From: Candidatus Melainabacteria bacterium
GTDB lineage: Bacteria; Cyanobacteriota; Vampirovibrionia; 2-02-FULL-35-15
Assembly: GCA_023250155.1 (NCBI GenBank)
Contig: JAHFBG010000003.1
Span: forward strand, 102,040-166,039
Direction of reading: 5' to 3'
Length of the DNA: 64,000 nucleotides
The first letter of the stretch is position 1; each line of letters opens with the position of its first letter. Both the position numbers and the translations under genes were made by a program. The notes under the pieces are model-generated. The model made no database searches and was not told the DNA's origin. It saw only the letters and a list, made by a program, of their open reading frames with translations. This document shows positions 10,319-60,432 of the stretch, one piece after another.

Positions 10319-12121
10319 TTATGCTGTCAACCGTGATTTTAACTTTTCTATAAAAGTTTCGGCTAAATCAGAGTCACCGACAGCTTCAACGATTTGTTCA
10401 TCTAACTTTTCAGAGACTCCATCACTTCCTAAAGCATTATTCAATGCCGTTTTTAAAGCAACCAAACCTGGATCATTATTTTCTATTGCGCCACTCTTTA
10501 GTTTTTCTACTAGAGCTTCTAACAAGTCTCCACCTGTATTATTGTCGCTTAAATAGCTATCAATATCTTCACCTAATTTTTCAGATGTACTATCATTATC
10601 TAAAGCAGTGTTAAAAGCTGCTTTCAAAGTAACTAAGCCTGGATCATTGTCTTCTATTTTACCGCTCTTTAGTTTTTCTACTAAAGTATCTAATAAGTCT
10701 CCACCTACACTATTGTCACTTAAATATTTATCTACATCCTTACCTAACTCTTCAGAGACAGTATCACTTTCCAGAGCATTGTTAAATGCAGTGCCTAGAG
10801 CAAGTAAGCTAGGATCATCATCTTTTATTTCACTGTTAGCAAATCTTTCTCCCAGAGCACTTAATCGATCTCCTGTAATATCATTTTCACCCAAATAGGT
10901 ACTTATATCTCCACCCAATTTTTCAGCTGTTTCATCACTACCTAGAGCATTGTTAAAAGCAGTGCCTAATGCAAGTAAGCTAGGGTCATCATCTTTTATT
11001 TCACGATTCTTAAACTTTTCCAATAAAGGACTTAGGAAGTCTTCTGCTATCGTATTATTATCAAAATAGTTTTCTAGATCTTTACCTAATTGTTCAGAGA
11101 ACTCAGTGCTTTGTAGAGCAATATTAAATGCATTTCTTAAAGCAAGCAAACTTGAAGCATCATCAGATAAGCTGGTTTTTAATTTTTCCATTAAAGCATC
11201 TATTAACTTGCTTCCTGTATCATACTCAGATACTGCATTGCTAGCCGTATTGGTTAGTGCATCAGTAAATGCTTTACTCTTAAGAGCATCAGTTGTTGTT
11301 TGTCTTAAAGCATTAACACCTTCATCAGTTACAAGATCTTTTTTGGTGAGAGAATTAACTATATTTTTTCCTATCTTCTCACCATCTCCAGAATTTTCTA
11401 ATGCATTAACTACAGTAGTTTCTAAATACTCAGTCAACTTCTTACCTCTTAAAGTTTGAACTGTAGCATCTTTTGTAGCAGCATCTATAGCAGCACCATC
11501 TTTCAATTGTTCTACAAATGGTTGTGACATTGCTGTTCTTAGTTTTTGTAATTCTTCAAGAAAAGGTTGAGCAGCTTGTTTATGAGCATTAACATGTGTT
11601 GAAATAGAATCCAATAAGTCTAAAATTGACTGGACTTGATTAGCATTTTCATTGGCTTCAAATCTAACACCTTCTTTTCTAACAAATTCTTTTAATGTCC
11701 ACTCAATACCAGGTAGATCATTTTCTTCTAACTGTTGAAGTCTTTTTACGGTAGATGAAAGTTCTTTATTTGTTTGTCTTAGGGTTAAACTTTTTCCAAT
11801 TACTTTTTTAACGGCTACTCCTAATATTCCACCAACACCAAAATCAATAGCATGATTAACAGTAATAGAAGGAAGTCCAGCTTCATCAGTATATTCTTTT
11901 GGTACAACCCTAAGATTTTCTTCTTGTCTCTTTTGTGATTTTTCAAGGGCTTTTGTATTTGTTTTATTAGTGTTTTCTTGGGGGGGAGGTGAGTTCTCTT
12001 GATTGTAATCTGTCACTAATTCTTGTGCTTTTTCTTTACCAGCTATAACTAAACTTCCACCTACTCCAAATGCTGCTAAATTAACTAGTCCATTAACTAT
12101 AAATGATCTTCTTGTTTGCAT
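10319..12121 (-). CDS. membrane-anchored repeat protein (about 56-aa tandem repeats)
   Basis: N-terminal TM helix; unit DDDPSLLALGTAFNNALGSD..EKLG.DI..YL..N...GD.L repeated about 5 times in the C-terminal half. Confidence 0.6.
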   Translation of the reverse strand: MQTRRSFIVNGLVNLAAFGVGGSLVIAGKEKAQELVTDYNQENSPPPQENTNKTNTKALEKSQKRQEENLRVVPKEYTDEAGLPSITVNHAIDFGVGGILGVAVKKVIGKSLTLRQTNKELSSTVKRLQQLEENDLPGIEWTLKEFVRKEGVRFEANENANQVQSILDLLDSISTHVNAHKQAAQPFLEELQKLRTAMSQPFVEQLKDGAAIDAATKDATVQTLRGKKLTEYLETTVVNALENSGDGEKIGKNIVNSLTKKDLVTDEGVNALRQTTTDALKSKAFTDALTNTASNAVSEYDTGSKLIDALMEKLKTSLSDDASSLLALRNAFNIALQSTEFSEQLGKDLENYFDNNTIAEDFLSPLLEKFKNREIKDDDPSLLALGTAFNNALGSDETAEKLGGDISTYLGENDITGDRLSALGERFANSEIKDDDPSLLALGTAFNNALESDTVSEELGKDVDKYLSDNSVGGDLLDTLVEKLKSGKIEDNDPGLVTLKAAFNTALDNDSTSEKLGEDIDSYLSDNNTGGDLLEALVEKLKSGAIENNDPGLVALKTALNNALGSDGVSEKLDEQIVEAVGDSDLAETFIEKLKSRLTA

Positions 12122-45480: not shown

Positions 45481-45780
45481 ATGGCAAAGAAAACAGAAAA
45501 GAAAACAGTGAAGAAAGCTACTACAAGAAAACCAAATGCAGCATTTATGAAACCATTACAACCAGATGATGCATTAGCACAAGTAGTAGGCTCAAAACCA
45601 CTTCCTAGAACAGAGATCACTAAAAAACTCTGGGCATATATAAAGAAAAATAAATTGCAAAATGAAAAGAATAGAAGAAACATAGATGCTGATGATGTTT
45701 TAAGACCTATCTTCAATGGTAAAAAACAAGTCAGTATGTTTGAAATGACAAAACTAGTTGCGCAACACGTTTCAAAATAA
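45481..45780 (+). CDS. SWIB/MDM2-domain protein
   Basis: 99 aa; AFMKPLQPDDALAQVVGSKPLPRTEITKKLWAYIKKNKLQN...NIDADDVLRPIFNGKKQVSMFEMTKLVAQHV matches the bacterial (chlamydial-type) SWIB domain; RBS GGAGA upstream. Confidence 0.85.
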   Translation: MAKKTEKKTVKKATTRKPNAAFMKPLQPDDALAQVVGSKPLPRTEITKKLWAYIKKNKLQNEKNRRNIDADDVLRPIFNGKKQVSMFEMTKLVAQHVSK

Positions 45781-45841: not shown

Positions 45842-47206
45842 ATGGAAAATAATAACAAAAATAAAATTGTATTATTGATTGGTTGTTTCTTTATATTCTA
45901 TTTATGGGTTGCAACAAAGAGTTCTCTCACTTTTCATTTTGAACAAGATCATAGAAATTATTACCACCTTTTAACAGATGCATTTATAAATAGAAAACTT
46001 GATCTGTTAATCAAACCTCCACAAGGATTAATAGAATTAAAAAATCCTTATGACCCTGAAACTAATGGGTTTTATAGATGGCATGGCTTTCACGACTTAT
46101 CATATTACAAAGAAAAACTCTATTTATACTTTGGACCAACACCAGTATTGCTCCTATATGTTCCTTATAAATTATTGTTTAATAAAGGGTTACCAGATGC
46201 TTTTGCTATATTTGTTTTTACCTTTGCTACACTTATTTTTTCTGTGCTGTTTTTACTAAACATTAAAAATACTTATTTGAAGAACCTTCCAGATTGGGCT
46301 TTGTTATTAGGTATATTAATTATAGGGATATCAAATTTAAGCATCTACTTTTTACATCATCCATCAGTTTATATAATAGCTATTTCATCAGGAATGTGTT
46401 TCTTAACAGGTGCTTTGTATTTTTTTTCTAAGTCACTTAATAACTTTAATTTAAAATGGATTTCATCAGGAAGCATATTATTAGGCTTAGCAATTGGTGG
46501 AAGATTTTATCTTGTTTTTATAGGTAGCATTTTACTGATCTTTATGTGGATTAATCAAAGCAAAGGAAGTATGCAGTTACAAAATATTTCCGAATCATCA
46601 TTTAGAAAGGCTTTAATAGTTCCGTTTAGTCTTTGTGCAATAGCTCATTTTTTGTATAACTATTTAAGGTTTGATAATATCTTTGAAAATGGTTGTACTT
46701 ATCAAGTCACTATTTGGCAAGTAAAATTTTCTTACCTTAATACTATTAATAGTATTTGTCCAAATTTATATAATTATTTATTGAAACCACCTGTGTTTAT
46801 AAAAAGCTTTCCATTCTTAAAAATAGATTATTGGCAGCCTGACTTTCGTGTATTAGGAGCTCCTGAACCAATAATAGGAACATTATTTCTTTCACCATTT
46901 GTACTTGTCTTTTTCATAGGTATTATCCACTATTTAAAAAATAAAAAGATCTATAATAATGATCTTAATTTTCCATTGAAAACAATTTTTATTTTAACTA
47001 TCCCGATCTTAATTAATTTCTTATTTTTACTTTCTTTTAGATATGTAACATTAAGATATATAGCAGATTATTTAAATCTGTTGGTTTTGTCTTCCTGTAT
47101 TTTATGGTTTTATTTCTTTGACAAGTCAAAATTCATAAAGCTATTTGGATTTGTAACTGGGATCATTAGCATTTATGTTGGCATATTTACGACTTTGTTC
47201 AGATAA
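45842..47206 (+). CDS. polytopic membrane protein, possible GT-C-type glycosyltransferase
   Basis: 454 aa, more than 10 predicted TM helices, large first loop; function assignment weak. Confidence 0.5.
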   Translation: MENNNKNKIVLLIGCFFIFYLWVATKSSLTFHFEQDHRNYYHLLTDAFINRKLDLLIKPPQGLIELKNPYDPETNGFYRWHGFHDLSYYKEKLYLYFGPTPVLLLYVPYKLLFNKGLPDAFAIFVFTFATLIFSVLFLLNIKNTYLKNLPDWALLLGILIIGISNLSIYFLHHPSVYIIAISSGMCFLTGALYFFSKSLNNFNLKWISSGSILLGLAIGGRFYLVFIGSILLIFMWINQSKGSMQLQNISESSFRKALIVPFSLCAIAHFLYNYLRFDNIFENGCTYQVTIWQVKFSYLNTINSICPNLYNYLLKPPVFIKSFPFLKIDYWQPDFRVLGAPEPIIGTLFLSPFVLVFFIGIIHYLKNKKIYNNDLNFPLKTIFILTIPILINFLFLLSFRYVTLRYIADYLNLLVLSSCILWFYFFDKSKFIKLFGFVTGIISIYVGIFTTLFR

Positions 47207-47881
47207 TTTGAGTCCTATGATGCTTACACCATACAAAACAATTAATATTCCACTTACAATGCTCATATTAAAAGGATCTGGTGTAGGTGTAAGAAGTGCG
47301 CCAGAAACTACACTGGTTAGAATTGCATATCTCCAATTTTTTATTAGTATTTGAGAGTTCACTATTCCTATATTTGCCAGCGCAAAAATAAGAACTGGTA
47401 AAAGAAAGGCACATCCACAAATAGCCATAATCATTAGAGTAAATGAGATGAAGCTCTCTATACTAATGCTAGTTAAAATCACATCTTTTCCAAACCCAAA
47501 CAAAAAACTAAGCATTGAAGGTGCTACAAAAAAATATGAAAATAATATACCTAAACAAAATAACAAAGGCGAACTAATAAGTATTGGTGTTATCATTTTT
47601 CTTTCTTTATGATTCAATCCCGGTAAAATAAAACTTGATAATTGCCAGATAATAAGCGGTGATGAAATCAAGAGTCCTATATAAAGGGCTATCCTAAAGC
47701 TTGTAAAGAAAAACTCTCCTGGTTTAATCTGAAGAAAAGTAGTACCCTGCGGAGCAATGCTTGTTAATAACCTAATGACTTCTTTGCTATAAGTAAAACC
47801 AATTGTTGTTGTAATAGTAAGAACAATCAGTGAAACTATAATTTTAATTCTTAGTTCATCCAGATGCTTGGACAATGGCAT
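47141..47881 (-). CDS. tatC: twin-arginine translocase subunit TatC
   Basis: MPLSKHLDELRIKII N-term, six TM helices; start trimmed from 47953. Confidence 0.8.
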   Translation of the reverse strand: MPLSKHLDELRIKIIVSLIVLTITTTIGFTYSKEVIRLLTSIAPQGTTFLQIKPGEFFFTSFRIALYIGLLISSPLIIWQLSSFILPGLNHKERKMITPILISSPLLFCLGILFSYFFVAPSMLSFLFGFGKDVILTSISIESFISFTLMIMAICGCAFLLPVLIFALANIGIVNSQILIKNWRYAILTSVVSGALLTPTPDPFNMSIVSGILIVLYGVSIIGLKLSEQSRKYANINANDPSYKSK

Positions 47882-47959
47882 TAAAGGACTATCATCAGAA
47901 TCATCGCTATCCTTGTTTTTATATAGATCTAATTGTTTTGTAGAAATTGGCATTACATC

Positions 47960-49075
47960 TTACTTTACAATAACAAGATCATCCCTGTGTATAATTGTTT
48001 CTCCATAAGTATAACCCAAGGTTTTTTCTATGATAGAACTTTTTAAGCCCATTATTTTTTCTATATCTAGATTGCTATAGTTTGTAATGCCTTTAGCAAA
48101 AGGCTTGTTTGAGTTGAGAAGACAAATTTCTATCGCAGATCCTCTATCAAAACTACCACTTATTTTTTTAACACCCGCTGGTAATAAACTTTTCCCATTA
48201 TTTACCAAGGCTTTTTGAGCCCCGCTATCTACATAGACTTTTCCATTACTTACCAAAGTATGAGCAATCCAACTTTTTCGTTTATCAATTTTATTTGTAC
48301 TTGGCAAAAACGTTGTCCCAATTTCTTTATCATTTAATATTTCAAGAATTAATTCAGGTTCTTTTCCATATATTATGTGAGTTTTAATTCCTACATTTGT
48401 AGCAAGCTTTGCTGCATGAATCTTGGAAATCATTCCACCTGAGCTAAACTCACTTCCTGTGCCGGCTGCCATTTTTTCAATTTGTGGAGTAATTTTTTCT
48501 ACAACAGGTATGAGTTTTGCATTTTTATTAGTTTTTGGATTTGAATCATATAAGCCTTTTTCATCAGTAAGTATTATCAGTCTATCTACTGAAATCAAAT
48601 CAGCGACCATTGCGCTTAGCATGTCATTATCACCAAATCTTATTTCCTCACTTGCTACAGTATCGTTTTCATTTATTATAGGCAGAACATCTAGGTCAAG
48701 CAATTCTAAAATAGTTTCTCTTGCATTTATATATGTTTCTCTCTGGACAAAACCTTCTCTGGTTAATAATATTTGAGCAATAGGAATCTCATGTTTTGAA
48801 AAGTATTTTTCATAAACCTGCATAAGTAATGCCTGTCCAATAGAGGCACATGCTTGTTTTTTTGAAATAGTTTTTGGTTTTTCTTTTAGGTTTAGTTTCT
48901 TTACTCCAAGTGCAACTGCACCAGAAGTTACAAGAAGTACTTTATGTCCTGATTTTTTTAATTTGGCTATTACCTCTGTAAGTTCTTCAACAACATTAGT
49001 GTTAATACCTTTAGTAATATCGCTTAAAGTATTTGTACCTATTTTTATTATTATTGTTTTGTAGGAGACTTTCAT
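47960..49075 (-). CDS. proB: glutamate 5-kinase with C-terminal PUA domain
   Basis: IIIKIGTNTLSD...VLLVTSGAVALG amino-acid-kinase motifs; 371 aa. Confidence 0.9.
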   Translation of the reverse strand: MKVSYKTIIIKIGTNTLSDITKGINTNVVEELTEVIAKLKKSGHKVLLVTSGAVALGVKKLNLKEKPKTISKKQACASIGQALLMQVYEKYFSKHEIPIAQILLTREGFVQRETYINARETILELLDLDVLPIINENDTVASEEIRFGDNDMLSAMVADLISVDRLIILTDEKGLYDSNPKTNKNAKLIPVVEKITPQIEKMAAGTGSEFSSGGMISKIHAAKLATNVGIKTHIIYGKEPELILEILNDKEIGTTFLPSTNKIDKRKSWIAHTLVSNGKVYVDSGAQKALVNNGKSLLPAGVKKISGSFDRGSAIEICLLNSNKPFAKGITNYSNLDIEKIMGLKSSIIEKTLGYTYGETIIHRDDLVIVK

Positions 49076-49102
49076 CAGGAATTCATTATATAATGATGCC
49101 TA

Positions 49103-49462
49103 ATGATAAATATAAAAAGTATTGTTTCTGGGATATTCCCTGGATTTATTACCAATACAAAATCAAATTTAGATTCAAAAGATAAGCTTCAATCTGATGA
49201 GGCTAAAAATAAGCCTATTGAAGTAATAGTAATTCCTACAAAATCTACAAAAGCAGCAGTACTTCGTGACTGGGTCGCTGCTGGTTTGCTTATAGGATTT
49301 GCAGGATTAACTATTAATGATAGGTTTATCAAACCAAAAGATTTAAGTGATTTAGATCGCATGATAAACATCATTAAAAAATTTGATTCTAATCAAGATG
49401 GACATTTATCTAAAGATGAGTTAGATACAATGACTAAATTTATAAATCAAGTAAAAAAATAG
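49103..49462 (+). CDS. membrane protein with C-terminal EF-hand
   Basis: TM helix WVAAGLLIGFAGL; canonical EF loop DSNQDGHLSKDE. Confidence 0.55.
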   Translation: MINIKSIVSGIFPGFITNTKSNLDSKDKLQSDEAKNKPIEVIVIPTKSTKAAVLRDWVAAGLLIGFAGLTINDRFIKPKDLSDLDRMINIIKKFDSNQDGHLSKDELDTMTKFINQVKK

Positions 49463-49470
49463 GATTTCCC

Positions 49471-49869
49471 ATGAGCATACCGATTAATGGACCGCAAGAT
49501 TTTAAACCACCTCAACCTATTCAAAAAACAAATCCGGTTGAACATAAACTAGAAGTGAAAAGTGAGAAGACTGGTGAAGTACTTAATATAACAATCAGCT
49601 TACCTCAAAATACTACTGACTCCCCGCGCTATAAAAAACTAAAAGAAATCAGAGACTGGACTTTAGCGACATGGACATTGATGACTGGAATTATTTTTTC
49701 TATTTGGGGTCTACAAGGTCTTTATGATAGAAATTTTGGGCACAATAGACCCGATATTCAAAATGCAGTACAAGAAAAAAATAAAAAAGAATTAGATGAT
49801 GGTTTAAAATCAATAAATGATGAATTGAAAAGTATTAGAAAGTTGCTTGAGGAGAAGAAAAATAAATAG
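49471..49869 (+). CDS. hypothetical membrane protein
   Basis: 132 aa, one TM helix. Confidence 0.45.
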   Translation: MSIPINGPQDFKPPQPIQKTNPVEHKLEVKSEKTGEVLNITISLPQNTTDSPRYKKLKEIRDWTLATWTLMTGIIFSIWGLQGLYDRNFGHNRPDIQNAVQEKNKKELDDGLKSINDELKSIRKLLEEKKNK

Positions 49870-49883
49870 TAAAAGGAGAGACT

Positions 49884-50291
49884 ATGGATATAGATAGAGT
49901 AGACAACATTGTTAGAAAAACCACTGCAGGAGCATGCTTAGGGATACTTGCTTACTTTACAGGTGGCATAATATATGGGCATGTTGATAAGCCTTTATCA
50001 GAAGTTAATCCGCTCGTAGCTAAATTTGATGAAGATGGAGATAATAGACTCAGTGTTCAGGAAGCAACAAAGCTTTTAATTAGCCTTGATAAGAATAAGG
50101 ATGGAATTCTCTCTGAAGAGGAGTTAAAAGAAGCAGATAAGTTGCTTGAAAATAGTGAACATACCATTCTTCCATATTATATTAAATATAATATTTTAAA
50201 CTCACAGGGCAATCTTTGGTTAGCTCGTCAAGGTTTACTTAGTACTCAAAATAGTGAAGTGAAAGAATGGTTAGAGAAAAGGAAGAAATAA
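49884..50291 (+). CDS. membrane protein with paired EF-hands
   Basis: TM helix then EF loops DEDGDNRLSVQE and DKNKDGILSEEE. Confidence 0.6.
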   Translation: MDIDRVDNIVRKTTAGACLGILAYFTGGIIYGHVDKPLSEVNPLVAKFDEDGDNRLSVQEATKLLISLDKNKDGILSEEELKEADKLLENSEHTILPYYIKYNILNSQGNLWLARQGLLSTQNSEVKEWLEKRKK

Positions 50292-50349
50292 AAATGAGTA
50301 GTAAATTTACATTCTTTGTTACGATGACAATATTGGGTGTTAAAAAACT

Positions 50350-51066
50350 ATGAATATAAAAAAAGTAGATTTATCTACAGCAGACATAGGAGAGTTGATA
50401 AGAATTGGGAATCAAAATAAACGTAATGTGATTACCGAGAGTTTAAATTTTCTCAGGAGACATCCAAACATCATTACCGGGGTTGGTCTAGGAATAGCAG
50501 CACCATTAGGATTTCTTGGACTAGCGACGGGGCTTGCTGAAGCAAGCCTTGATCTGCCCCCTGTGCGTTCAATGTCTATGTTGCTTCTTAGTCTTGGAAT
50601 AATAGGTGGAACTGACTATATAGATCGTAAATTAGAATCAAATGTTAATTTCTTAGGAGAAGATATTAGAACAACGGATATGACTAAACCTATTAGTGCA
50701 GATGAAGTATTTGAGAAATTAGAAAAAAATAAAAGTTTGCTTGAAAAGATAAAACAATATTATGCATATTATGACAATGAAAATCTATCAAAGAAACTAG
50801 AACAAGAGGAATCACTTGCTAGTGCTGCTCATGACTTGGTACAAAAGCCTAAAGTAAAAGCAGCATTAACTGAAGTCGTTTCTATGACTGGGAGGCTTAA
50901 CGATACACAATCAGATGACAAAACTCAGATTAGAGAATTATGTTTTGAATTAGATAAAAAACTAGACAAGCTATGTGGAGCTTTAGAATTAAATCCAGAT
51001 ATTGAAATTGAAGATGAGCCATATGTTGATCAATGGCAGAAGTCATCTACGGAAATAAAAAAATAA
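50350..51066 (+). CDS. hypothetical membrane protein
   Basis: 238 aa, TM segment GVGLGIAAPLGFLGLATGLA. Confidence 0.45.
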   Translation: MNIKKVDLSTADIGELIRIGNQNKRNVITESLNFLRRHPNIITGVGLGIAAPLGFLGLATGLAEASLDLPPVRSMSMLLLSLGIIGGTDYIDRKLESNVNFLGEDIRTTDMTKPISADEVFEKLEKNKSLLEKIKQYYAYYDNENLSKKLEQEESLASAAHDLVQKPKVKAALTEVVSMTGRLNDTQSDDKTQIRELCFELDKKLDKLCGALELNPDIEIEDEPYVDQWQKSSTEIKK

Positions 51067-51067
51067 T

Positions 51068-51292
51068 TTACTTAGTTATAATTTGTGCATCTAGATTTTT
51101 TAAATAAATAACATAGGGATTATCTAAATCAAATGTTTTCTTAGAGGCTGACAGCACCTCAATACCTTTTACAGTGCCATCAGAAAAATAATCGATAAAT
51201 GTATCTTTGTCTACCTCTTCAGTTTTTACAACCTTACCAGGTTTAAATTCTATATATAAGGTATCGGCTTCTTTATCGTATTCTATTTGCAT
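51068..51292 (-). CDS. DUF2283-family protein (antitoxin-like)
   Basis: MQIEYDKEADTLYIEFKPG...GIEVL typical DUF2283. Confidence 0.7.
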   Translation of the reverse strand: MQIEYDKEADTLYIEFKPGKVVKTEEVDKDTFIDYFSDGTVKGIEVLSASKKTFDLDNPYVIYLKNLDAQIITK

Positions 51293-51297
51293 AATTG

Positions 51298-51552
51298 TTA
51301 CCTGAAATACCTTGTAATCGCTGTAATCACAATTATTTTATCATCTTCTCTAACAAATAAAACTTTAACTTCTTTCTCCCTATAGAATATTCCTTCCCAA
51401 CACCTATTGTATTCAAACACTTTAACAACACTTAGTTTGTTATACCTTTCAACTACTGGCTTTGAACTTTCCAAAGCATCTTTAATTTCACTTAGATCTA
51501 TACCTCTATCATTGGCTCTCTTTAGTACATGTTTAGTAAATTCGAACTGCAT
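51298..51552 (-). CDS. DUF4258-family protein (toxin-like)
   Basis: FTKHVLKRANDRGIDLSEIKDAL....VLFVREDDKIIVITAI typical DUF4258; listed ORF trimmed to Met50. Confidence 0.6.
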   Translation of the reverse strand: MQFEFTKHVLKRANDRGIDLSEIKDALESSKPVVERYNKLSVVKVFEYNRCWEGIFYREKEVKVLFVREDDKIIVITAITRYFR

Positions 51553-51632
51553 AGTTATCGGTATTCTAGTACATGAATTAGAAAAAAACTGTAACCAGGA
51601 GTTACACGAATAATTAAAAAAATAAGAGAGAT

Positions 51633-51782
51633 TGTGTTGATGTGTTGGTGTACTGATGTACTGATGTATTGATGTTATTACGTACTTATATCCACACACA
51701 ATAACAGGATTGAGCTATCAGGATTGAGGAGTGAGCAGAATAAATTCTACTCTCAATTCCCAATCCTCATTCCTCATTCCTC
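51633..51782. repeat. intergenic block of octamer (TNNTGATG)5 and inverted heptamer (AGGATTG / CCTCATT) repeats
   Basis: tgttgatg tgttggtg tactgatg tactgatg tattgatg; then caggattgag...ggattgagga facing ctcaattcccaatcctcattcctcattcctc. Confidence 0.75.
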
Positions 51783-51890
51783 TATATCTTTCCTTAATCA
51801 AGTCCCACACATTGCAGTAAAAAAAATAGTCAGTTATTATTATCGTCAGTTTGTAAAACCAGTGTAAGAGTCAAAGAAAAAAGAGGGAAT

Positions 51891-52514
51891 ATGAAACTAT
51901 CAAATATAGTAGGAGCTACATTAATAGGAGCTACATTAACAACAGCTGGGTGTAATCGTAGTGAAGAGCTTAGAGAAAAAGAACACATAGAACAAGTAAG
52001 AAAAGAGTCAGAAGAACGGCAAGAAGAATGGAAAAAGATTGCAGAGATTCAAGCACACATTAAAAGTGCACTTGTTCAAGGGAAAAAAGAATCTTATTCA
52101 TTAGAGCATTTTAGAGATAAAATTTCTGGAATACATTTATTTGATGGAAATAAAAATAGTATTCTTGAGCTTGAAGAAATAGATCTGTTTATAAAAGTAG
52201 TCATCAATAAAAATAGTGAAACATACACAAAAGAAGGCTTGAAAAAACTACAAGAAATAAGAATGTCGATAGAGAAAGATGGTAATCGTGAATACCAATT
52301 TCGTCCTTTGAACTTTGGCTCTGATGTACGCTGGAGTGGTGCTGAGTTGGATTACAGAACAAGAATAGAGGTAGAAAGACATCAATATACACCTGATAAC
52401 ATAACTCAAACACTTAAAAACATGTCAATTAAATGTAGAGAGTATGAAGAAAAGCTTCGCGAGCAAATAGAATCAGAGATTCAAAAACAAATAAATCAAG
52501 CTTTGAAAAAATAA
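51891..52514 (+). CDS. EF-hand-loop lipoprotein, paralog 1
   Basis: lipobox LTTAGC; FDGNKNSILELEEIDLFIK EF-like loop; C-terminus identical to paralog 3. Confidence 0.6.
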   Translation: MKLSNIVGATLIGATLTTAGCNRSEELREKEHIEQVRKESEERQEEWKKIAEIQAHIKSALVQGKKESYSLEHFRDKISGIHLFDGNKNSILELEEIDLFIKVVINKNSETYTKEGLKKLQEIRMSIEKDGNREYQFRPLNFGSDVRWSGAELDYRTRIEVERHQYTPDNITQTLKNMSIKCREYEEKLREQIESEIQKQINQALKK

Positions 52515-52523
52515 GGGGAATAT

Positions 52524-53015
52524 ATGAACATACTTAAAACAGGAGTACTAGCAACAGCGCTTTCTATGCCATTGATAGGTGCTGGGTGCAATCAAGCTAC
52601 TAATAAAGAGCAAGAAGAGATTGTCGCAGCTAAGCATGAAGGGTTAGCAGAAACCCCATTACCATTAAAAGAACTTAGAAATGTTTCTGATGGTATCCTC
52701 CATTTATTTGATACAAATAAAAATGAAATACTTGATCCTGAGGAAATAGATTTATTTATAAAAGTAGTAATTAATAAAGGCACTGGAAAATATACAGAAG
52801 AAGGACAAAAAAAGTTATGGGACGTAAGATTTCAAATCTATAAACAGGGACGGGGATATGGTAATGGTGGTCCATATCAACCAAATAATATAAAAACTAG
52901 CATTGATAATCTATGGGACAAGGCTGAAGAATATAATACAAAACGACGAGAGCAAATTAATGAAGAAGTAAAACAAGGAATTGAAAAAGAATTAAAAAAT
53001 ACTAAAACAAAATAG
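52524..53015 (+). CDS. EF-hand-loop lipoprotein, paralog 2
   Basis: lipobox LIGAGC; FDTNKNEILDPEEIDLFIK. Confidence 0.6.
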   Translation: MNILKTGVLATALSMPLIGAGCNQATNKEQEEIVAAKHEGLAETPLPLKELRNVSDGILHLFDTNKNEILDPEEIDLFIKVVINKGTGKYTEEGQKKLWDVRFQIYKQGRGYGNGGPYQPNNIKTSIDNLWDKAEEYNTKRREQINEEVKQGIEKELKNTKTK

Positions 53016-53030
53016 CTATAGGAGAAAATC

Positions 53031-53642
53031 ATGAACCTGTCAAAAATAGTAGGAGCTACATTAACAACAGCTGGGTGTTATAGAGGTGAGGAGCTTAAGG
53101 AAAAACAACGCGAAGAACAGAGGTTACAGGAGTTACGAAAACAGGAAGAAAAGGAACAGAAAGAGATTTCAAAGATTCAAGCACACATTGAAAGTGCACT
53201 TGCTCAAAGGAAAAAAGACCCTTATTCATTAAAAAATCTTAGAGATAAAATCCCTGGAATACATTTATTTGATGGAAATAAAAATAATATCCTTGATCTT
53301 GAAGAAATAGATCTATTTATAAAAGCAATAGTCAATAAAAACAGTGAAAAATACACTAAAGAAGGATTAGAAAAACTGCTCGAAGTAAAAGGGCTGATAT
53401 CAAAACAGAGTAGTCGTGAATATCAATTTCGCCGCTTGAATTTTTACTCTGATGAATCTTGGACTGATGGTAATTTGAGTCCCAGAACAAGAATAGAGAC
53501 AGAGCGACATCGTTACACACCTGATAACATAACTCAAACACTTAACAACATGTCAATTAAATGTAGAGAGTATGAAGAAAAGCTTCGCGAGCAAACAGAA
53601 TCAGAGATTCAAAAACAAATAAATCAAGCATTAAAAAAATAA
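53031..53642 (+). CDS. EF-hand-loop lipoprotein, paralog 3
   Basis: lipobox LTTAGC; FDGNKNNILDLEEIDLFIK. Confidence 0.6.
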   Translation: MNLSKIVGATLTTAGCYRGEELKEKQREEQRLQELRKQEEKEQKEISKIQAHIESALAQRKKDPYSLKNLRDKIPGIHLFDGNKNNILDLEEIDLFIKAIVNKNSEKYTKEGLEKLLEVKGLISKQSSREYQFRRLNFYSDESWTDGNLSPRTRIETERHRYTPDNITQTLNNMSIKCREYEEKLREQTESEIQKQINQALKK

Positions 53643-53654
53643 GGAAAAAAAATC

Positions 53655-54182
53655 ATGAACATACTACAAAAAATCTTTTTAGCAGCAGCTTTTACTGCAC
53701 CACTAACGAGCATTGGCTGCAAGAAGAGTGATGATAGAGCTGATTGGCCTACTTCAGAACAATGGCAAAAAGTACGTGAAGATGACAGAAAAAGACGAGC
53801 AGATAGAAGTAGCGAGCTAGCAAAGTCTGTTTATCCACTAGAAAAACTTAGACATGTAGCGCATGGTATACATCTGTTTGATGAAAACAGAAATGAAGTG
53901 CTAGAACCCAATGAAATAGATAGGTTTATAAAGATTCAAATAAATAATGAGACTGATAAATTTACAGAAGAAGGAAAGAAAAAATTCTCAAATATTATAG
54001 ATTCTTTATATAAAGAATCTTGGCTGCCTAATGATGAACTTATTACTGTCAAATATCGTCCTAATAACATAACCAAAACTCTTGAAAACTTTGATGCCAA
54101 GCTTAAGGACTATGATAAAAAATATCTTGATCAAATAGATGCAGAAATTCAAAGCAAAATCAATCGATTAAAAGATCGATAA
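53655..54182 (+). CDS. EF-hand-loop lipoprotein, paralog 4
   Basis: lipobox LTSIGC; FDENRNEVLEPNEIDRFIK. Confidence 0.6.
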   Translation: MNILQKIFLAAAFTAPLTSIGCKKSDDRADWPTSEQWQKVREDDRKRRADRSSELAKSVYPLEKLRHVAHGIHLFDENRNEVLEPNEIDRFIKIQINNETDKFTEEGKKKFSNIIDSLYKESWLPNDELITVKYRPNNITKTLENFDAKLKDYDKKYLDQIDAEIQSKINRLKDR

Positions 54183-54261
54183 ATTTGTAACCAGCGATTA
54201 CAGTTTAATAACAAATACTGTTTTTCATATCTTGACCATGACATAGTATTCTTTTATACTT

Positions 54262-54483
54262 TTGTTCATGATCACCAAGGAACAAGAATATAGAGCTGAA
54301 ATACTTAAGATAGCAGGATTTGCCTTCATTGCCCCATTTGCAAAAATATTTTTAACTCTTCCATTTATAGACTACGGTACAATAGCAATAGATAGCTTGC
54401 TCTATATAATATATATGTTAATGCTTGCAATTGTTGGAATAATATTATTTTTTGATGGCTGTAAGATGATTAGAGAAAGGTAA
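54262..54483 (+). CDS. small membrane protein
   Basis: 73 aa with two TM helices; weak. Confidence 0.3.
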   Translation: MFMITKEQEYRAEILKIAGFAFIAPFAKIFLTLPFIDYGTIAIDSLLYIIYMLMLAIVGIILFFDGCKMIRER

Positions 54484-54603
54484 GAATAAATATGGATTTA
54501 AAAATAATAGTTATGACATTTATGTTTATTTGTATGTTGGGTTTTGCATGGGTTTTAAAATTTGTTCTGGCAAAAGAAGTTCAATCACCTAAAAAGAAAA
54601 AAA

Positions 54604-55059
54604 CTAATATCGAGCATTCTGTAAAGTAACAATTCTAAGTTTTTTTACACCTGAACCAGCAGCAGCATCAAGAACAGCAACTACATGCTTTTGTCTGGAT
54701 TCTTGATCTGCTTTTACTGCAACAGGAATATCTTTTGTACCGGCTTTTTGAAACTCTCTTTTTAATGCATCACTAACAAGTCCTTGAACACGATCTATGG
54801 GCGTTCTTTCATCTGAAACCTTTATACCATTTACTGCAATGAGCCCATCTTTACTGACTTCTACAGTAATAGTTTTATTTCGTTGTTCTGCCCTTCCATG
54901 AGCTGCTACTGGCGGCTCTATTTTCAATGAACTTTGATTTATAAGAGGAGCGATTAGAATCATGATTATAAGCAAGACTAAAAATACATCTGTAAGTGGC
55001 GTAATATTTATTTCGCTAAACGTTTGTCTTCCACCTGAACCACCGCTACCAAATGCCAT
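54604..55059 (-). CDS. exbD: biopolymer transport protein ExbD/TolR
   Basis: INITPLTDVFLVLLIIMIL TM motif, 151 aa. Confidence 0.85.
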   Translation of the reverse strand: MAFGSGGSGGRQTFSEINITPLTDVFLVLLIIMILIAPLINQSSLKIEPPVAAHGRAEQRNKTITVEVSKDGLIAVNGIKVSDERTPIDRVQGLVSDALKREFQKAGTKDIPVAVKADQESRQKHVVAVLDAAAGSGVKKLRIVTLQNARY

Positions 55060-55793: not shown

Positions 55794-55976
55794 TAGGGTT
55801 GAGGATTGAGGATTTAGCTTTCACAATTTTTTTTAGTAGCAATTATTTTGAACCTAATTTATGAGTACCTAAACATGAGAACAATTTTCCAGTTCTCTGA
55901 TTCTCTGCATCTCTGATTCTCTGTTCTCTTGTTCTCTGTTCTTCTGATCCTCTGACATCTAATTTCTGATCCTCTA
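55794..55976. repeat. intergenic heptamer blocks (TTGAGGA)n and (TTCTCTG)n between exbB and tonB-like
   Basis: gggttgaggattgaggattt at 55794..55816; ttctctgattctctgcatctctgattctctgttctcttgttctctgttcttctgatcctctga at 55892..55976. Confidence 0.75.
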
Positions 55977-57338
55977 GAATTGTCTATAAGATCCACTAGC
56001 ACCAAAAACATTGTAGTCAAAAGTAAATTCAATATCTACTATATTTGGAGCATTTTCTGGGAGTCTTGCAAAAGGTGCAGCAGTTTGAACTGCAAGTAGT
56101 GCAGCTTTGTCAGATGGACCAAACCCACTACCTGTTTTTATCTGTAAGTCTGTAAGTTCCCCACTTCTGTTTATCTTGAATACGACAACTACTCTTTTTG
56201 ATTCATTTCCACGAGGTGGCCTCCAGGAACGTTTTATTCTTCTTTGTAGCTCATTCATATAAGGACCAAAATCTATATCTTTTTTAGCTGCAACACTAGC
56301 TGGTGCAAGCGGACGTGAATTCGGTGGTGGATTACCTACATTTCCTAAACCTCCTACACCACCTATGCCAGGAACTTTAGGTGCTACTGCAATTGCATTA
56401 TTAGTGGATTCTGAGGATGTAGCAGAACCTGGATCAGGTGCTGGTGCTGCAGGCTTTGGTAAATCCTGGGTTTCAGATTGATTATTTTGAATTGGAGCAG
56501 GTTGGGGCTGAGCTTGTGTTATGGCTGGTTGGTTTGATATTTTAGGAACGGGTCTAGGTGCGACTTTTGGTTGTGGTTGTACTACTGGTTGAGGTGCACT
56601 TACCATCTGGGGAACTACTTTTGGAACAGCGCGTGGAGGGCTACTAGGTCTGCTTGGCTGTGCTGGTGAGACTTCTTTTCGTGGATCATGTTTTCCTTGA
56701 TCTCTAGATTGAACAGTAGATCGTCTTTTTGTTTCAGGTGGCGGAGGCTTAGGAGATTCAATCTGAGGAAGTATAAATTCAATTTCAGTAATTTGCTCTC
56801 TGTTTTTAATTGGAATTACAAAAAATAAACTAGTTAGAAATAATAAAATAAATACAATTGAATGAATTATATATGAACTGGCTGTTGATTCTGAAAACTG
56901 AAATATGGTTGAGTCAGTGCTGATAATTTTATAATCATATTTTTGTAGTGCTTTACTGGCATCAAGATATGCATCTGTCATACTATAAATCACAAAACAT
57001 ACAATGGTGATTAGCAAAGAAGTAGAAAATGTACCACCAAACTTTATCGTGTTCATTAAGTACTCAGCAGCAGGAGAAGGTTCAAACTCAAACTTGAAAA
57101 TAAAAGTTAGAAGAAATTTTAAAATCGTTAGAATTATAAGAGAAAACTCCAGTGTCGATATAGGGTGAATAGAAGCATAAATCATGGAAAGACTAATAAA
57201 AGCAGCAACTAAAAACAATATCCCTTTTTTAGTTTTTCCATTATAAAGTTGTCCAATCCCTGGAATGATAGAGTAGAGAGCTATTACAAATGGAGCTGTA
57301 TCAGATTTGTTTTTTCCATCAAATAAAATGCTTGTCAT
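55974..57338 (-). CDS. TonB-like protein with Pro-rich linker and polytopic N-terminal extension
   Basis: C-terminal KRVVVVFKINRSGELTDLQIKTGSGF...LLAVQTAAPFARLP TonB-C-like; Pro/Ala/Gln-rich spacer; N-terminal about 180 aa with 4 TM helices. Confidence 0.6.
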   Translation of the reverse strand: MTSILFDGKNKSDTAPFVIALYSIIPGIGQLYNGKTKKGILFLVAAFISLSMIYASIHPISTLEFSLIILTILKFLLTFIFKFEFEPSPAAEYLMNTIKFGGTFSTSLLITIVCFVIYSMTDAYLDASKALQKYDYKIISTDSTIFQFSESTASSYIIHSIVFILLFLTSLFFVIPIKNREQITEIEFILPQIESPKPPPPETKRRSTVQSRDQGKHDPRKEVSPAQPSRPSSPPRAVPKVVPQMVSAPQPVVQPQPKVAPRPVPKISNQPAITQAQPQPAPIQNNQSETQDLPKPAAPAPDPGSATSSESTNNAIAVAPKVPGIGGVGGLGNVGNPPPNSRPLAPASVAAKKDIDFGPYMNELQRRIKRSWRPPRGNESKRVVVVFKINRSGELTDLQIKTGSGFGPSDKAALLAVQTAAPFARLPENAPNIVDIEFTFDYNVFGASGSYRQF

Positions 57339-58597: not shown

Positions 58598-58992
58598 GTT
58601 CATTCTCATAAGTTTATACATTGTTTAAAAGTGTGTCCCCAAGAGCTAGTATCTCAATCATTTGTTGTAGGAATTTCTTCCCGTTTTCTCTAAAAGTCTC
58701 AACTTATTGAAAAATCAATACTCCAGAGAATTATCTTTTGTGCCGATTAAATAATATAGGTTTTTACTCAATAAAACTATTCATACTTTTTTTATTGAAT
58801 AAAAGACCTTTAACGAAAAGGGCAAACCACAAGTAATTGTGGGACGCAAAGCCACAAGTCCTTTAAAATCCAAGGGCCAATAAAACATTGCATGTTTATA
58901 TAGCTAGTTTGTTCAATTCTGTTTGGACAAATAAGCGATTAAAACAATGCTGGCTAGGGTGATGATAGAGGATGGTTGGGTTACCGAATTAA

Positions 58993-60432
58993 ATGGTAAA
59001 ACAAACCAGAGATAAAAGAGCAAGAATTAGAGGACGGATAACAAAAGCCTGCCTTACTCTTTTTACATTTTGTTTTGTATTTGTAAACTCTCAACTCTCA
59101 GTGCTTAGCTTTAATTATGAAGCTGATTATGATTCTATAATTGTTCATCCAAAGAAACAGCTACTAAGATCAAAAAGAATTGGTTCATTAATGTATAGAA
59201 GCGGTGTTCAAAGATTCCAAAAAATTAAAGATGATGTTTTTGTAATTCCTTTAGATACTAATAATAGAACTTCTAACAAAGAAACTATTTCACAATTACA
59301 ACAAAGTGGTTTATATGATTTAGTAGAGCCCGACTATAAGTTTTCTCTCGATCAAGAACCCACTGATAGAAAATATGTAAGAATTGCTACTCATAAAGCT
59401 GTAATAGAAGTACCGGGCAACAATTCAGAAGTACCGGGCAACAATTCAGAAGCACCAAGCATCAATTCTCCTGAGATAACAAATACTAATTTAAGTATTA
59501 ATAAGGTTCAAGAAATTACACCTAATGATAAAGGGTTTTCTTCACAGTACTACTTAAGAGAAATCAATGCAACAAAAGCATGGAATACAGCTCTTGGAAA
59601 TGAAATATCAGTTGGCGTGCTGGATACAGGTGTTGATGCAAATCACCCTGATTTAATTGGTAAAGTAAGTGGTGGGATTAATTTAAATGATCAGGATGTA
59701 AAAGATACTATAGGGCATGGAACAAGTGTGGCAGGAATAATAGCTGCAAACACTAATAACAATCAAGGAATTGCAGGGATAGGATGGAATACAAAAATAA
59801 TCTCAATGCGGGTTACAGATGATGTAGGACAGGCAAGAGTATCTACAGTAGTTACAGCATTAGATGAAGCACATAAGAGAGGGATAAAAATTGTTCAACT
59901 TAGCTTGAGTACAAATCAATTTTCTCAAACTTTAAAAAGAGCTATTGAAGAAGCACAAAGCAATGGTATTTTAATTATCTCTACAGGTGGCAATACAGGC
60001 GTAGAGGAAATCCGTTATCCAGCTGCATTTGATGGAGTAATTGGTGTAGGAGCAGTTGGTGAAACAAAAGAGCTTGAATATTATAGTACTACGGGTGATC
60101 ATATTAGCCTTGTAGCACCGGGCTCTGATATTTATACTACAGCTATAGATTCCAGCTATGACAAAGTTACTGGAACATCCTTTGCTGCTCCACAAGTAGC
60201 AGGTGCTGCTGCTTTAGTCTGGTCTATTTCACCAAACTTAACAAACAATGAAGTAAGAGATATTCTTCTTAAATCCGCTGATGATCTAGGACAAGAAGGT
60301 AAAGATAAAGAGTTTGGTTATGGACATTTAAATATTGAGAAGGCAGTAGAGTTAGCAAAAGGTAATGATTCACCACAGTCCAATCCCACAACAACAAATT
60401 CAATAGAAATAAAATCGTGGATTAAGAGATAA
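58993..60432 (+). CDS. subtilisin-like serine peptidase (S8)
   Basis: Asp VGVLDTGVD, His GHGTSVAGII, Ser GTSFAAPQVAGAAAL catalytic triad motifs; 21-nt tandem VPGNNSE repeat at 59411..59452. Confidence 0.9.
   Translation: MVKQTRDKRARIRGRITKACLTLFTFCFVFVNSQLSVLSFNYEADYDSIIVHPKKQLLRSKRIGSLMYRSGVQRFQKIKDDVFVIPLDTNNRTSNKETISQLQQSGLYDLVEPDYKFSLDQEPTDRKYVRIATHKAVIEVPGNNSEVPGNNSEAPSINSPEITNTNLSINKVQEITPNDKGFSSQYYLREINATKAWNTALGNEISVGVLDTGVDANHPDLIGKVSGGINLNDQDVKDTIGHGTSVAGIIAANTNNNQGIAGIGWNTKIISMRVTDDVGQARVSTVVTALDEAHKRGIKIVQLSLSTNQFSQTLKRAIEEAQSNGILIISTGGNTGVEEIRYPAAFDGVIGVGAVGETKELEYYSTTGDHISLVAPGSDIYTTAIDSSYDKVTGTSFAAPQVAGAAALVWSISPNLTNNEVRDILLKSADDLGQEGKDKEFGYGHLNIEKAVELAKGNDSPQSNPTTTNSIEIKSWIKR

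Follow-up and report, generated by a model that had tools for sequence, protein, structure and literature searches.

Here we describe an island of ten small genes at positions 49103-54182 of a 64,000-nucleotide stretch of the Candidatus Melainabacteria contig JAHFBG010000003.1; this whole stretch is referred to as the window. Two membrane proteins (g1 and g3) and four tandem lipoproteins (LP1-LP4) of the island carry EF-hand-type loops, and the set may serve as calcium sensors or buffers of the cell envelope. The open reading frames (ORFs) listed in an earlier note on this DNA are all present. The genes of the island, and the small ORF that follows them, are:

49103-49462, + strand: g1, 119-residue bitopic membrane protein (RDW motif, transmembrane (TM) segment, DRF motif) with the C-terminal EF loop DSNQDGHLSKDE at 49385-49420
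49471-49869, + strand: g2, 132 residues, RDW-TM-YDRNF, a g1 paralogue by alignment
49884-50291, + strand: g3, 135 residues, N-terminal signal-anchor, EF loops at 50028-50063 and 50088-50123, 20 residues apart
50350-51066, + strand: g4, 238 residues, hydrophobic hairpin (residues ~40-90), C-terminal half helical, EF loop absent
51068-51292, - strand: DUF2283 protein, antitoxin-like, 74 residues (Pfam 63.9 bits, cut-off 23)
51298-51552, - strand: DUF4258 protein, toxin-like, 84 residues in the public assembly call (Pfam 35.6 bits, cut-off 25)
51891-52514, + strand: LP1, 207-residue lipoprotein, EF loop 1 DGNKNSILELEE at 52143-52178, loop 2 degenerate
52524-53015, + strand: LP2, 163-residue lipoprotein, EF loop 1 DTNKNEILDPEE at 52710-52745
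53031-53642, + strand: LP3, 203-residue lipoprotein, EF loop 1 DGNKNNILDLEE at 53271-53306, matching PS00018
53655-54182, + strand: LP4, 175-residue lipoprotein, EF loop 1 DENRNEVLEPNE at 53880-53915
54268-54483, + strand: small two-TM ORF, 71 residues, last gene of the LP operon

The intergenic gaps measure 8-14 nt from g1 to g3, 58 nt between g3 and g4, and 9-15 nt from LP1 to LP4. Since Shine-Dalgarno-like motifs precede most island genes and gene gaps are as short as 8-15 nt, we read the island as two operons; no convincing terminator was found inside it. A family search with the 71-residue ORF returned no match. The DUF2283 and DUF4258 genes lie 5 nt apart on the minus strand, each scores above its Pfam cut-off, and by sequence they form a toxin-antitoxin-like pair. 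This pair had been noticed earlier with a GTG-started DUF4258 ORF of 133 residues, which is probably over-extended; the 84-residue form is likelier.

All six-frame ORFs of at least 60 residues in the window were scanned with a relaxed EF-loop pattern, D.[DNS].[DNS]..[LIVM][DENQSTG]..[DE], as a regular expression. All seven matches fall between 49385 and 53915 and the pattern is therefore not scattered by chance; one loop lies in g1, two in g3 and one in each of LP1-LP4. In 7/7 loops, positions 1, 3, 5, 9 and 12 carry oxygen ligands and position 8 is hydrophobic. The g1 loop DSNQDGHLSKDEL, the second g3 loop DKNKDGILSEEEL and the LP3 loop DGNKNNILDLEEI also match the strict PROSITE pattern PS00018 (regular expression), and the other g3 loop DEDGDNRLSVQE agrees with it except at position 13. 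The loops of LP1, LP2 and LP4 follow the relaxed ligand pattern only, with S or E instead of [DNQGHRK] at position 6.

Besides PS00018, the EF-hand family models considered were Pfam PF00036, PF13405 and PF13499. g3 exceeds the cut-offs of EF-hand_1 (28.1 bits, cut-off 25.4) and EF-hand_6 (26.4 bits, cut-off 25), and it matches calmodulins in the Protein Data Bank (PDB) with an E-value of 2e-5. The canonical loops reported earlier for g3 are thus borne out, and these profile matches show g3 to be a genuine EF-hand protein with two loops. The canonical loop claimed for g1 stands as a PS00018 match, but its EF-hand_1 score of 22 bits is under the cut-off of 25.4. In g2 the EF-loop region is degenerate and contains no usable loop, and the C-terminus is coiled-coil-like. 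The lipoproteins are paralogous, and all four follow the PS51257-type lipobox rule (a regular expression for an N-terminal signal peptide ending in [LVI..][ASTG][GAS]-C), as the earlier note had proposed.

LP1-LP4 belong to a very small family. An exhaustive HMMER search with a six-sequence profile retrieved 31 proteins at E ≤ 1e-3 among 1.84 billion cluster representatives. A word-indexed search of 5.8 billion proteins gave six members, a scan of genome contigs returned a single relative, and a scan of JGI metagenomes with the LP profile found none. The proteins found are all unnamed, and no Pfam family is dedicated to them. An alignment of 26 members has the lipobox Cys in every sequence (26/26), and the Gly before it is almost invariant. 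From this Cys the common module proceeds through a charged helix and a PLxxLR motif to EF loop 1 (FDxNxNxxLxxxE) and a 12-residue helix, followed by loop 2, which begins 21 residues past the start of loop 1, a PxNIxxTLxN motif and a long amphipathic C-terminal helix.

No columns of the family alignment are better conserved than the ligand positions of loop 1 (93-100%). Across 29 members, position 1 is D in 28, position 3 is N or D in 27, position 5 is N or D in 28 and position 12 is E or D in 28, while L, I or V at position 8 and a polar or acidic residue (D/E/S/T/N) at position 9 are found in all 29. The distant members P0014, P0015, P0018, P0019 and P0021 carry a further, fully canonical loop (DxDxDGxLSxxE) at exactly 21 residues downstream of the first, a spacing from which it follows that the helix leaving loop 1 is the helix entering loop 2. 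The loop spacing of g3, 20 residues, is also compact. In the clade of the window copies, loop 2 is one residue shorter and has no acid at position 12, and it is therefore probably a non-binding partner.

The relationship to EF-hands is clearest when the family is taken as a whole. Four of 26 members match Pfam EF-hand_1 (E ≤ 0.01). The 26-member profile matches calbindin D28k in the PDB at E 2.9e-8 and secretagogins at E 1e-5 to 1e-3; almost all of the matches listed belong to EF-hand proteins and align in register at the loop. An hhalign comparison of the close LP clade with an independent EF-hand profile is also in register (P 2.9e-4). At the family level, the EF-hand character of the LPs is thus supported by these profile comparisons.

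Structure prediction of the paralogues had been suggested earlier. The AlphaFold2 model of LP4, built from six sequences, reached a predicted local distance difference test score (pLDDT) of 83, with a core above 90, and a predicted template modelling score (pTM) of 0.70. A disordered lipoprotein tether (residues 1-28) leads into a long helix (34-56) and two short helices (62-65 and 72-75). The EF region follows as a loop (76-84), a helix (85-96), a second loop and a helix (105-121), and after a small hairpin the protein ends in a long helix (137-174). The overall model is a helix-loop-helix-loop-helix unit held between long N- and C-terminal helices.

In the phylogeny of the four copies, which had also been proposed, LP1 and LP3 are sisters (71% identity, synonymous divergence (dS) 0.30, ratio of nonsynonymous to synonymous divergence (dN/dS) 0.58). 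LP2 stands separately, and LP4 clusters with two proteins of other genomes, P0005 from a Caenarcaniphilales metagenome-assembled genome (MAG) and P0007. Pairs other than LP1/LP3 are 38-49% identical, dS is above 1.2 for LP1/LP2 and LP2/LP4 (above 1.3 for the latter), and dN/dS is below 1 in all pairs. The near-identical ends of LP1 and LP3, about 45 residues, had been taken as a sign of recent duplication or gene conversion, and both the observation and its reading hold. There are two differences in the last 42 residues and about 5 nt differences in the last ~45 codons, where dS is near zero, against mid-gene dS values of 0.3-0.85. This pattern fits gene conversion or a mosaic origin, and LP1/LP3 is the sole recent duplication in the array. 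Duplication of a long-short gene pair (A-B to A-B-A'-B') as the origin of the long-short-long-short array was rejected because dS between LP2 and LP4 exceeds 1.3 and because the partners of LP4 in the tree come from other genomes.

The island fills a slot between two conserved gene blocks:

47141-47953, - strand: tatC, left flank, same order in contigs L017-L019
47960-49075, - strand: proB, left flank, same order in L017-L019
54604-55059, - strand: exbD, right flank, convergent with the island, same order in L011 and L017-L019
55062-55751, - strand: exbB, right flank, convergent with the island, same order in L011 and L017-L019
55974-57338, - strand: tonB-like gene, right flank, convergent with the island, same order in L011 and L017-L019

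Five related contigs have a common backbone, consisting of tatC-proB (-), the slot (+), exbD-exbB-tonB-x-yjgF (-) and a riboswitch with an S8 peptidase gene. The products of tatC and proB are 63-69% identical to those of L017-L019, and those of the exbD/exbB/tonB flank are 72-89% identical between genomes (ExbB, 85-89%). The slots of L017, L018 and L019 contain two genes only. One encodes a 54-residue lipoprotein in L017, and in L018 and L019 a g2-like protein (103 and 104 residues, TM segment and YDRN motif, no EF loop) that matches the g1/g2 family profile. The other encodes an RDW-TM protein of 180-194 residues with a canonical EF-hand at its end. g1 belongs to this RDW-TM family, which has homologues in L011 and L017-L019. 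The slot of L011 contains two RDW-TM-EF proteins, a g3-like protein and six tandem genes with lipoprotein-like signal peptides, followed by exbD; four of these six are LP-family members with an EF loop, and a 93-residue one has no lipobox Cys. In the family tree, the LPs of L011 and those of the window belong to separate clades.

Gene lists and Pfam marks show no DUF4258/DUF2283 counterparts in the slots of L011 and L017-L019, and no gene of g4 size (238 residues) occurs there, as far as can be said without a g4 profile search. g4 and the DUF4258/DUF2283 pair have the appearance of recent insertions, by which the island was divided into two operons. The slots of the relatives are smaller or different, and slot proteins are only 20-42% identical between genomes, in contrast to 60-89% for backbone proteins. 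On these grounds, the island is a rapidly evolving accretion, specific to this lineage, around a conserved gene for an EF-hand membrane protein, and the slots form a series from one EF gene in L017-L019 up to the ten-gene island of the window.

Two further genomes, L011 and L016, encode a g3-like protein with an N-terminal TM segment and EF loops close to an LP gene. LP-family members outside the slot occur singly or in other contexts, and those of L001, L008, L014 and L016 are not beside exbBD; most contigs with family members are only 1-4 kb long, which limits the range of synteny seen. The LP4-like gene P0005 belongs to L001, a Caenarcaniphilales MAG. Its neighbours (6749-7888, - strand, and 10581-11772, + strand) encode a secreted protein, rich in Cys and bearing thrombospondin type-3 Ca-binding repeats, and a tandem array of unrelated lipoproteins (238-251 residues).

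From the genes, their motifs, profile-level family membership, synteny, paralogue history and the predicted fold, we infer topology, Ca2+ binding and a physiological role. We propose, giving it about an even chance, that small envelope-directed EF-hand genes have accreted in the one slot between proB-tatC and exbD-exbB-tonB and encode envelope Ca2+ sensors or buffers. The core of the slot would be a pair of bitopic RDW-TM membrane proteins, one with a C-terminal EF-hand (g1) and one without (g2), to which this lineage would have added g3, g4, the inserted DUF4258/DUF2283 pair and the four-LP operon. The island proteins would be exported by Sec and the LPs lipidated at the Cys, and an envelope location is plausible. 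g1 and g3 each lack a cleavable signal peptide and have one hydrophobic segment ahead of the EF domain, so that N-in/C-out is the simplest topology and would place their EF-hands in the periplasm. This orientation, together with LPs that are Sec/Lgt/Lsp substrates by sequence, suggests a Ca2+-binding set in which the EF domains of g1, g3 and LP1-LP4 are exposed to the periplasm or at the surface of the cell. The intact loop 1 would bind Ca2+ through positions 1, 3, 5, 7 (backbone), 9 and 12, and the degenerate loop 2 of the window copies would act only as its structural partner. Ca2+ occupancy may then stabilise or switch the helical bundle. By analogy with EfhP or the Caulobacter protein CaBP, the most likely function of the set would be Ca2+ binding or sensing on the periplasmic side.

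EfhP (PA4107) of Pseudomonas aeruginosa is predicted to be periplasmic and binds Ca2+ with a Kd of 13.7 uM (PMC9132961). This small protein is exported, has a hydrophobic segment at its N-terminus and contains two EF-hands; g3 has the same architecture, the two being compared by architecture only. The loops of g3 differ in being only 20 residues apart, and the LPs differ in their lipid anchor, their one intact loop and their extra flanking helices. CaBP of Caulobacter vibrioides, a free-living aquatic bacterium, is a Sec-exported periplasmic Ca2+ sensor of ~133 residues with several EF-hand motifs (PMC13171946). The EF-hand proteins of the island resemble it in small size, predicted export and EF-hand motifs. 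Unlike the lipobox-bearing LPs, however, CaBP is soluble and non-lipidated, it is tied to an extracytoplasmic function (ECF) sigma factor gene that has no equivalent among the island's neighbours, and it is a single gene instead of an array. Calbindin D28k and secretagogin, the best matches of the LP-family profile, share the loop and its exiting helix (FDxDxNGxLExxELDxFxK); they are eukaryotic cytosolic hexa-EF-hand proteins, and the likeness is at the motif level only, with no fold-level match. The type III Ca-binding effector XopAW (NCBIfam NF041410) is matched weakly by the EF loops of g1 (17.2 bits) and g3 (20.4 bits), far from its cut-off of 120; the resemblance is that of a generic EF loop only, and the genes annotated near the island include none for type III secretion.

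Several observations weigh against envelope Ca2+ sensing or buffering. Taken singly, none of LP1-LP4 matches a Pfam EF-hand model at E ≤ 1, an outcome that the earlier note had named as refuting its reading, so the EF-loop reading of these proteins holds for the family profile, through its calbindin and secretagogin matches, but not for each protein alone. Only 5/29 family members, and no window copy, have Gly at loop position 6. Several weak repeat matches add up to the calbindin E-value, the strongest of them alone having an independent E-value of 0.16, and the hhalign probability for the close LP clade is only 40%. The LP4 model has a helix-loop-helix-loop-helix form, but Foldseek found nothing significant in the PDB with either the full model or the trimmed EF region (best E 1.0 and 2.9). 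The topology of the island proteins is a prediction from sequence. Moreover, a single EF site may be permanently loaded at millimolar periplasmic Ca2+, and the loop would then have a structural role instead of acting as a sensor.

The missing Pfam matches of LP1-LP4 and the empty Foldseek search are also what one would see if the LP motif were a chance resemblance in a low-GC proteome rich in Asn, Asp, Glu and Lys, with the LPs not being EF-hand relatives. We consider this very improbable and already largely refuted. The EF pattern occurs nowhere else in the window, the ligand positions are conserved, the family profile matches nearly only EF-hand proteins among the PDB matches listed, and distant LP members have EF-hands that Pfam recognises. 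A lanmodulin-like protein whose loops bind lanthanides or another metal is extremely improbable. Lanmodulin is periplasmic, and its EF loops are compactly spaced, as are those of the island at 20-21 residues; g3 also has a weak match to NCBIfam LanM (NF053806). The match reaches only 15 bits, however, against a cut-off of 135. In addition, lanmodulin has four loops against one or two here, no loop examined, whether in the window or in the loop-1 columns of the LP family, has Pro at position 2, and the annotated genes near the island, the part of the window scanned for this, include no lanthanide-dependent enzyme.

A more serious alternative, possible though rather unlikely in our view, is that the LPs are variable envelope or surface proteins under diversifying or relaxed selection, shaped for instance by phage or predator contact or by adhesion, and that the loop is a structural Ca2+ site or a non-binding relic with no signalling function. 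The rapid divergence of the island proteins (23-42% identity, against 75-89% for ExbB/ExbD/TonB) would be expected of such proteins, as would the separate clades of the window and L011 LPs, the dN/dS of 0.58 and the mosaic, conversion-like pattern of LP1/LP3, the decayed loop 2 of the window clade, and an array whose copy number varies by genome and which is absent from three relatives. Yet the Ca-ligand columns of loop 1 remain the best conserved despite this divergence, an argument that metal binding is under selection. No pair has a dN/dS of 1 or more, and EF-hand proteins of the g1/g3 type are co-located in two genomes, suggesting a shared theme rather than mere variable antigens. It is also conceivable, if quite improbable, that the slot proteins work with the adjacent ExbB-ExbD-TonB system and couple the Ca2+ status of the envelope to TonB-dependent uptake. 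An RDW-TM-EF gene is found in the slot beside exbD in 5/5 related genomes examined, and EfhP, which is needed for Ca2+ regulation of iron uptake genes in P. aeruginosa, offers a precedent for a link between Ca2+ and iron uptake (PMC11559002). We give this link low weight because the slot genes are convergent with exbD, and thus not co-transcribed with it, and because the genomes are closely related (ExbB 85-89% identical), so that the synteny may be plain inheritance. Furthermore, the LP members of L001, L008, L014 and L016 lie away from exbBD, and EfhP acts on transcription rather than by gene linkage.

Returning to the proposal of envelope Ca2+ sensors or buffers, it is tempting to speculate that the Caenarcaniphilales, non-photosynthetic relatives of cyanobacteria, carry a dedicated, expandable envelope Ca2+ module that senses or buffers periplasmic Ca2+, made up of g1/g3-type proteins and LPs, possibly together with ExbBD-TonB, whose paralogues are tuned to different affinities or partners; we regard this wider idea as unlikely. 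The new element, a variant of known bacterial envelope Ca-binding proteins, would be a very small and uncharacterised family whose lipid-anchored members carry a compact EF pair, within an expandable Vampirovibrionia island of envelope EF-hand proteins. To our knowledge, bacterial Ca2+ signalling is poorly understood and very few exported EF-hand proteins have been studied, among them EfhP, CaBP, calsymin and lanmodulin. The locus offers a lipid-anchored compact EF-hand architecture without a Pfam family of its own, natural variants in which the second loop is intact or decayed, and an evolutionary series from a slot with one EF gene to a ten-gene island in uncultured cyanobacterial relatives. 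If the LPs do bind Ca2+, the family would be a small, tractable model of single-site envelope EF-hand sensors; if they do not, it would be a lineage-restricted set of hypothetical lipoproteins.

The earlier suggestion of a host association found no support. The nearest named relative, and the only named genome with an LP-family member, is the MAG nzgw190, classified in GTDB as Cyanobacteria; Vampirovibrionia; Caenarcaniphilales, with a G+C content of 32%, from New Zealand groundwater (PMC9562985 supplement); nothing points to a host. The window itself has a G+C content of 32% and encodes HEAT_PBS proteins, and its lineage is probably Caenarcaniphilales (Vampirovibrionia).

g4 has no match in Pfam, NCBIfam, PADLOC or the PDB. 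As PADLOC matched 0/10 island proteins, the island is no known defence system. According to public gene calls, a 99-residue SWIB-domain protein is encoded at ~45481-45780 (+ strand). SWIB domains are known mainly from eukaryotes and Chlamydiae and are unusual in a Vampirovibrionia-type lineage. Prompted by this neighbour and by the bilobed hydrophobic segment of g4, an Inc-like identity of g4 and a chlamydial origin were considered. This reading was dropped because the relative is a Caenarcaniphilales MAG and because HEAT_PBS proteins and a cyclic di-GMP (c-di-GMP) riboswitch lie nearby.

The spacer between the DUF4258 gene and LP1 is 338 nt long and rich in repeats:

51633-51689, no strand: 8-nt tandem repeat, ~6 copies, intergenic, upstream of LP1
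51706-51781, no strand: 30-nt imperfect inverted repeat of GATTGAG/GAATGAG heptamers, RNA fold -30.3 kcal/mol, z -5.1

A search of positions 48900-54700 against Rfam gave no match at E ≤ 1. Runs of GATTGAG and TTCTCTG heptamers also occur between exbB and tonB (55794-55817 and ~55890-55960). Such intergenic heptamer repeats recall the short tandem heptamer repeats of cyanobacteria.

Further downstream, a c-di-GMP-I riboswitch (58811-58988, + strand, 58.8 bits) immediately precedes a subtilase S8 gene (58993-60432), and it is found at the same place in L017 (14591-14665), L018 (14465-14539) and L019 (14452-14526). An insertion inside the aptamer of the window is suggested by the length of the match, 178 nt compared with 75 nt in the relatives. 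The TonB-like protein (55974-57338, - strand) has a TonB_2 domain at residues 359-440, a Pro-rich linker and a long N-terminal region of multi-TM appearance, as judged by eye from its sequence. This 454-residue form is kept in L017-L019.

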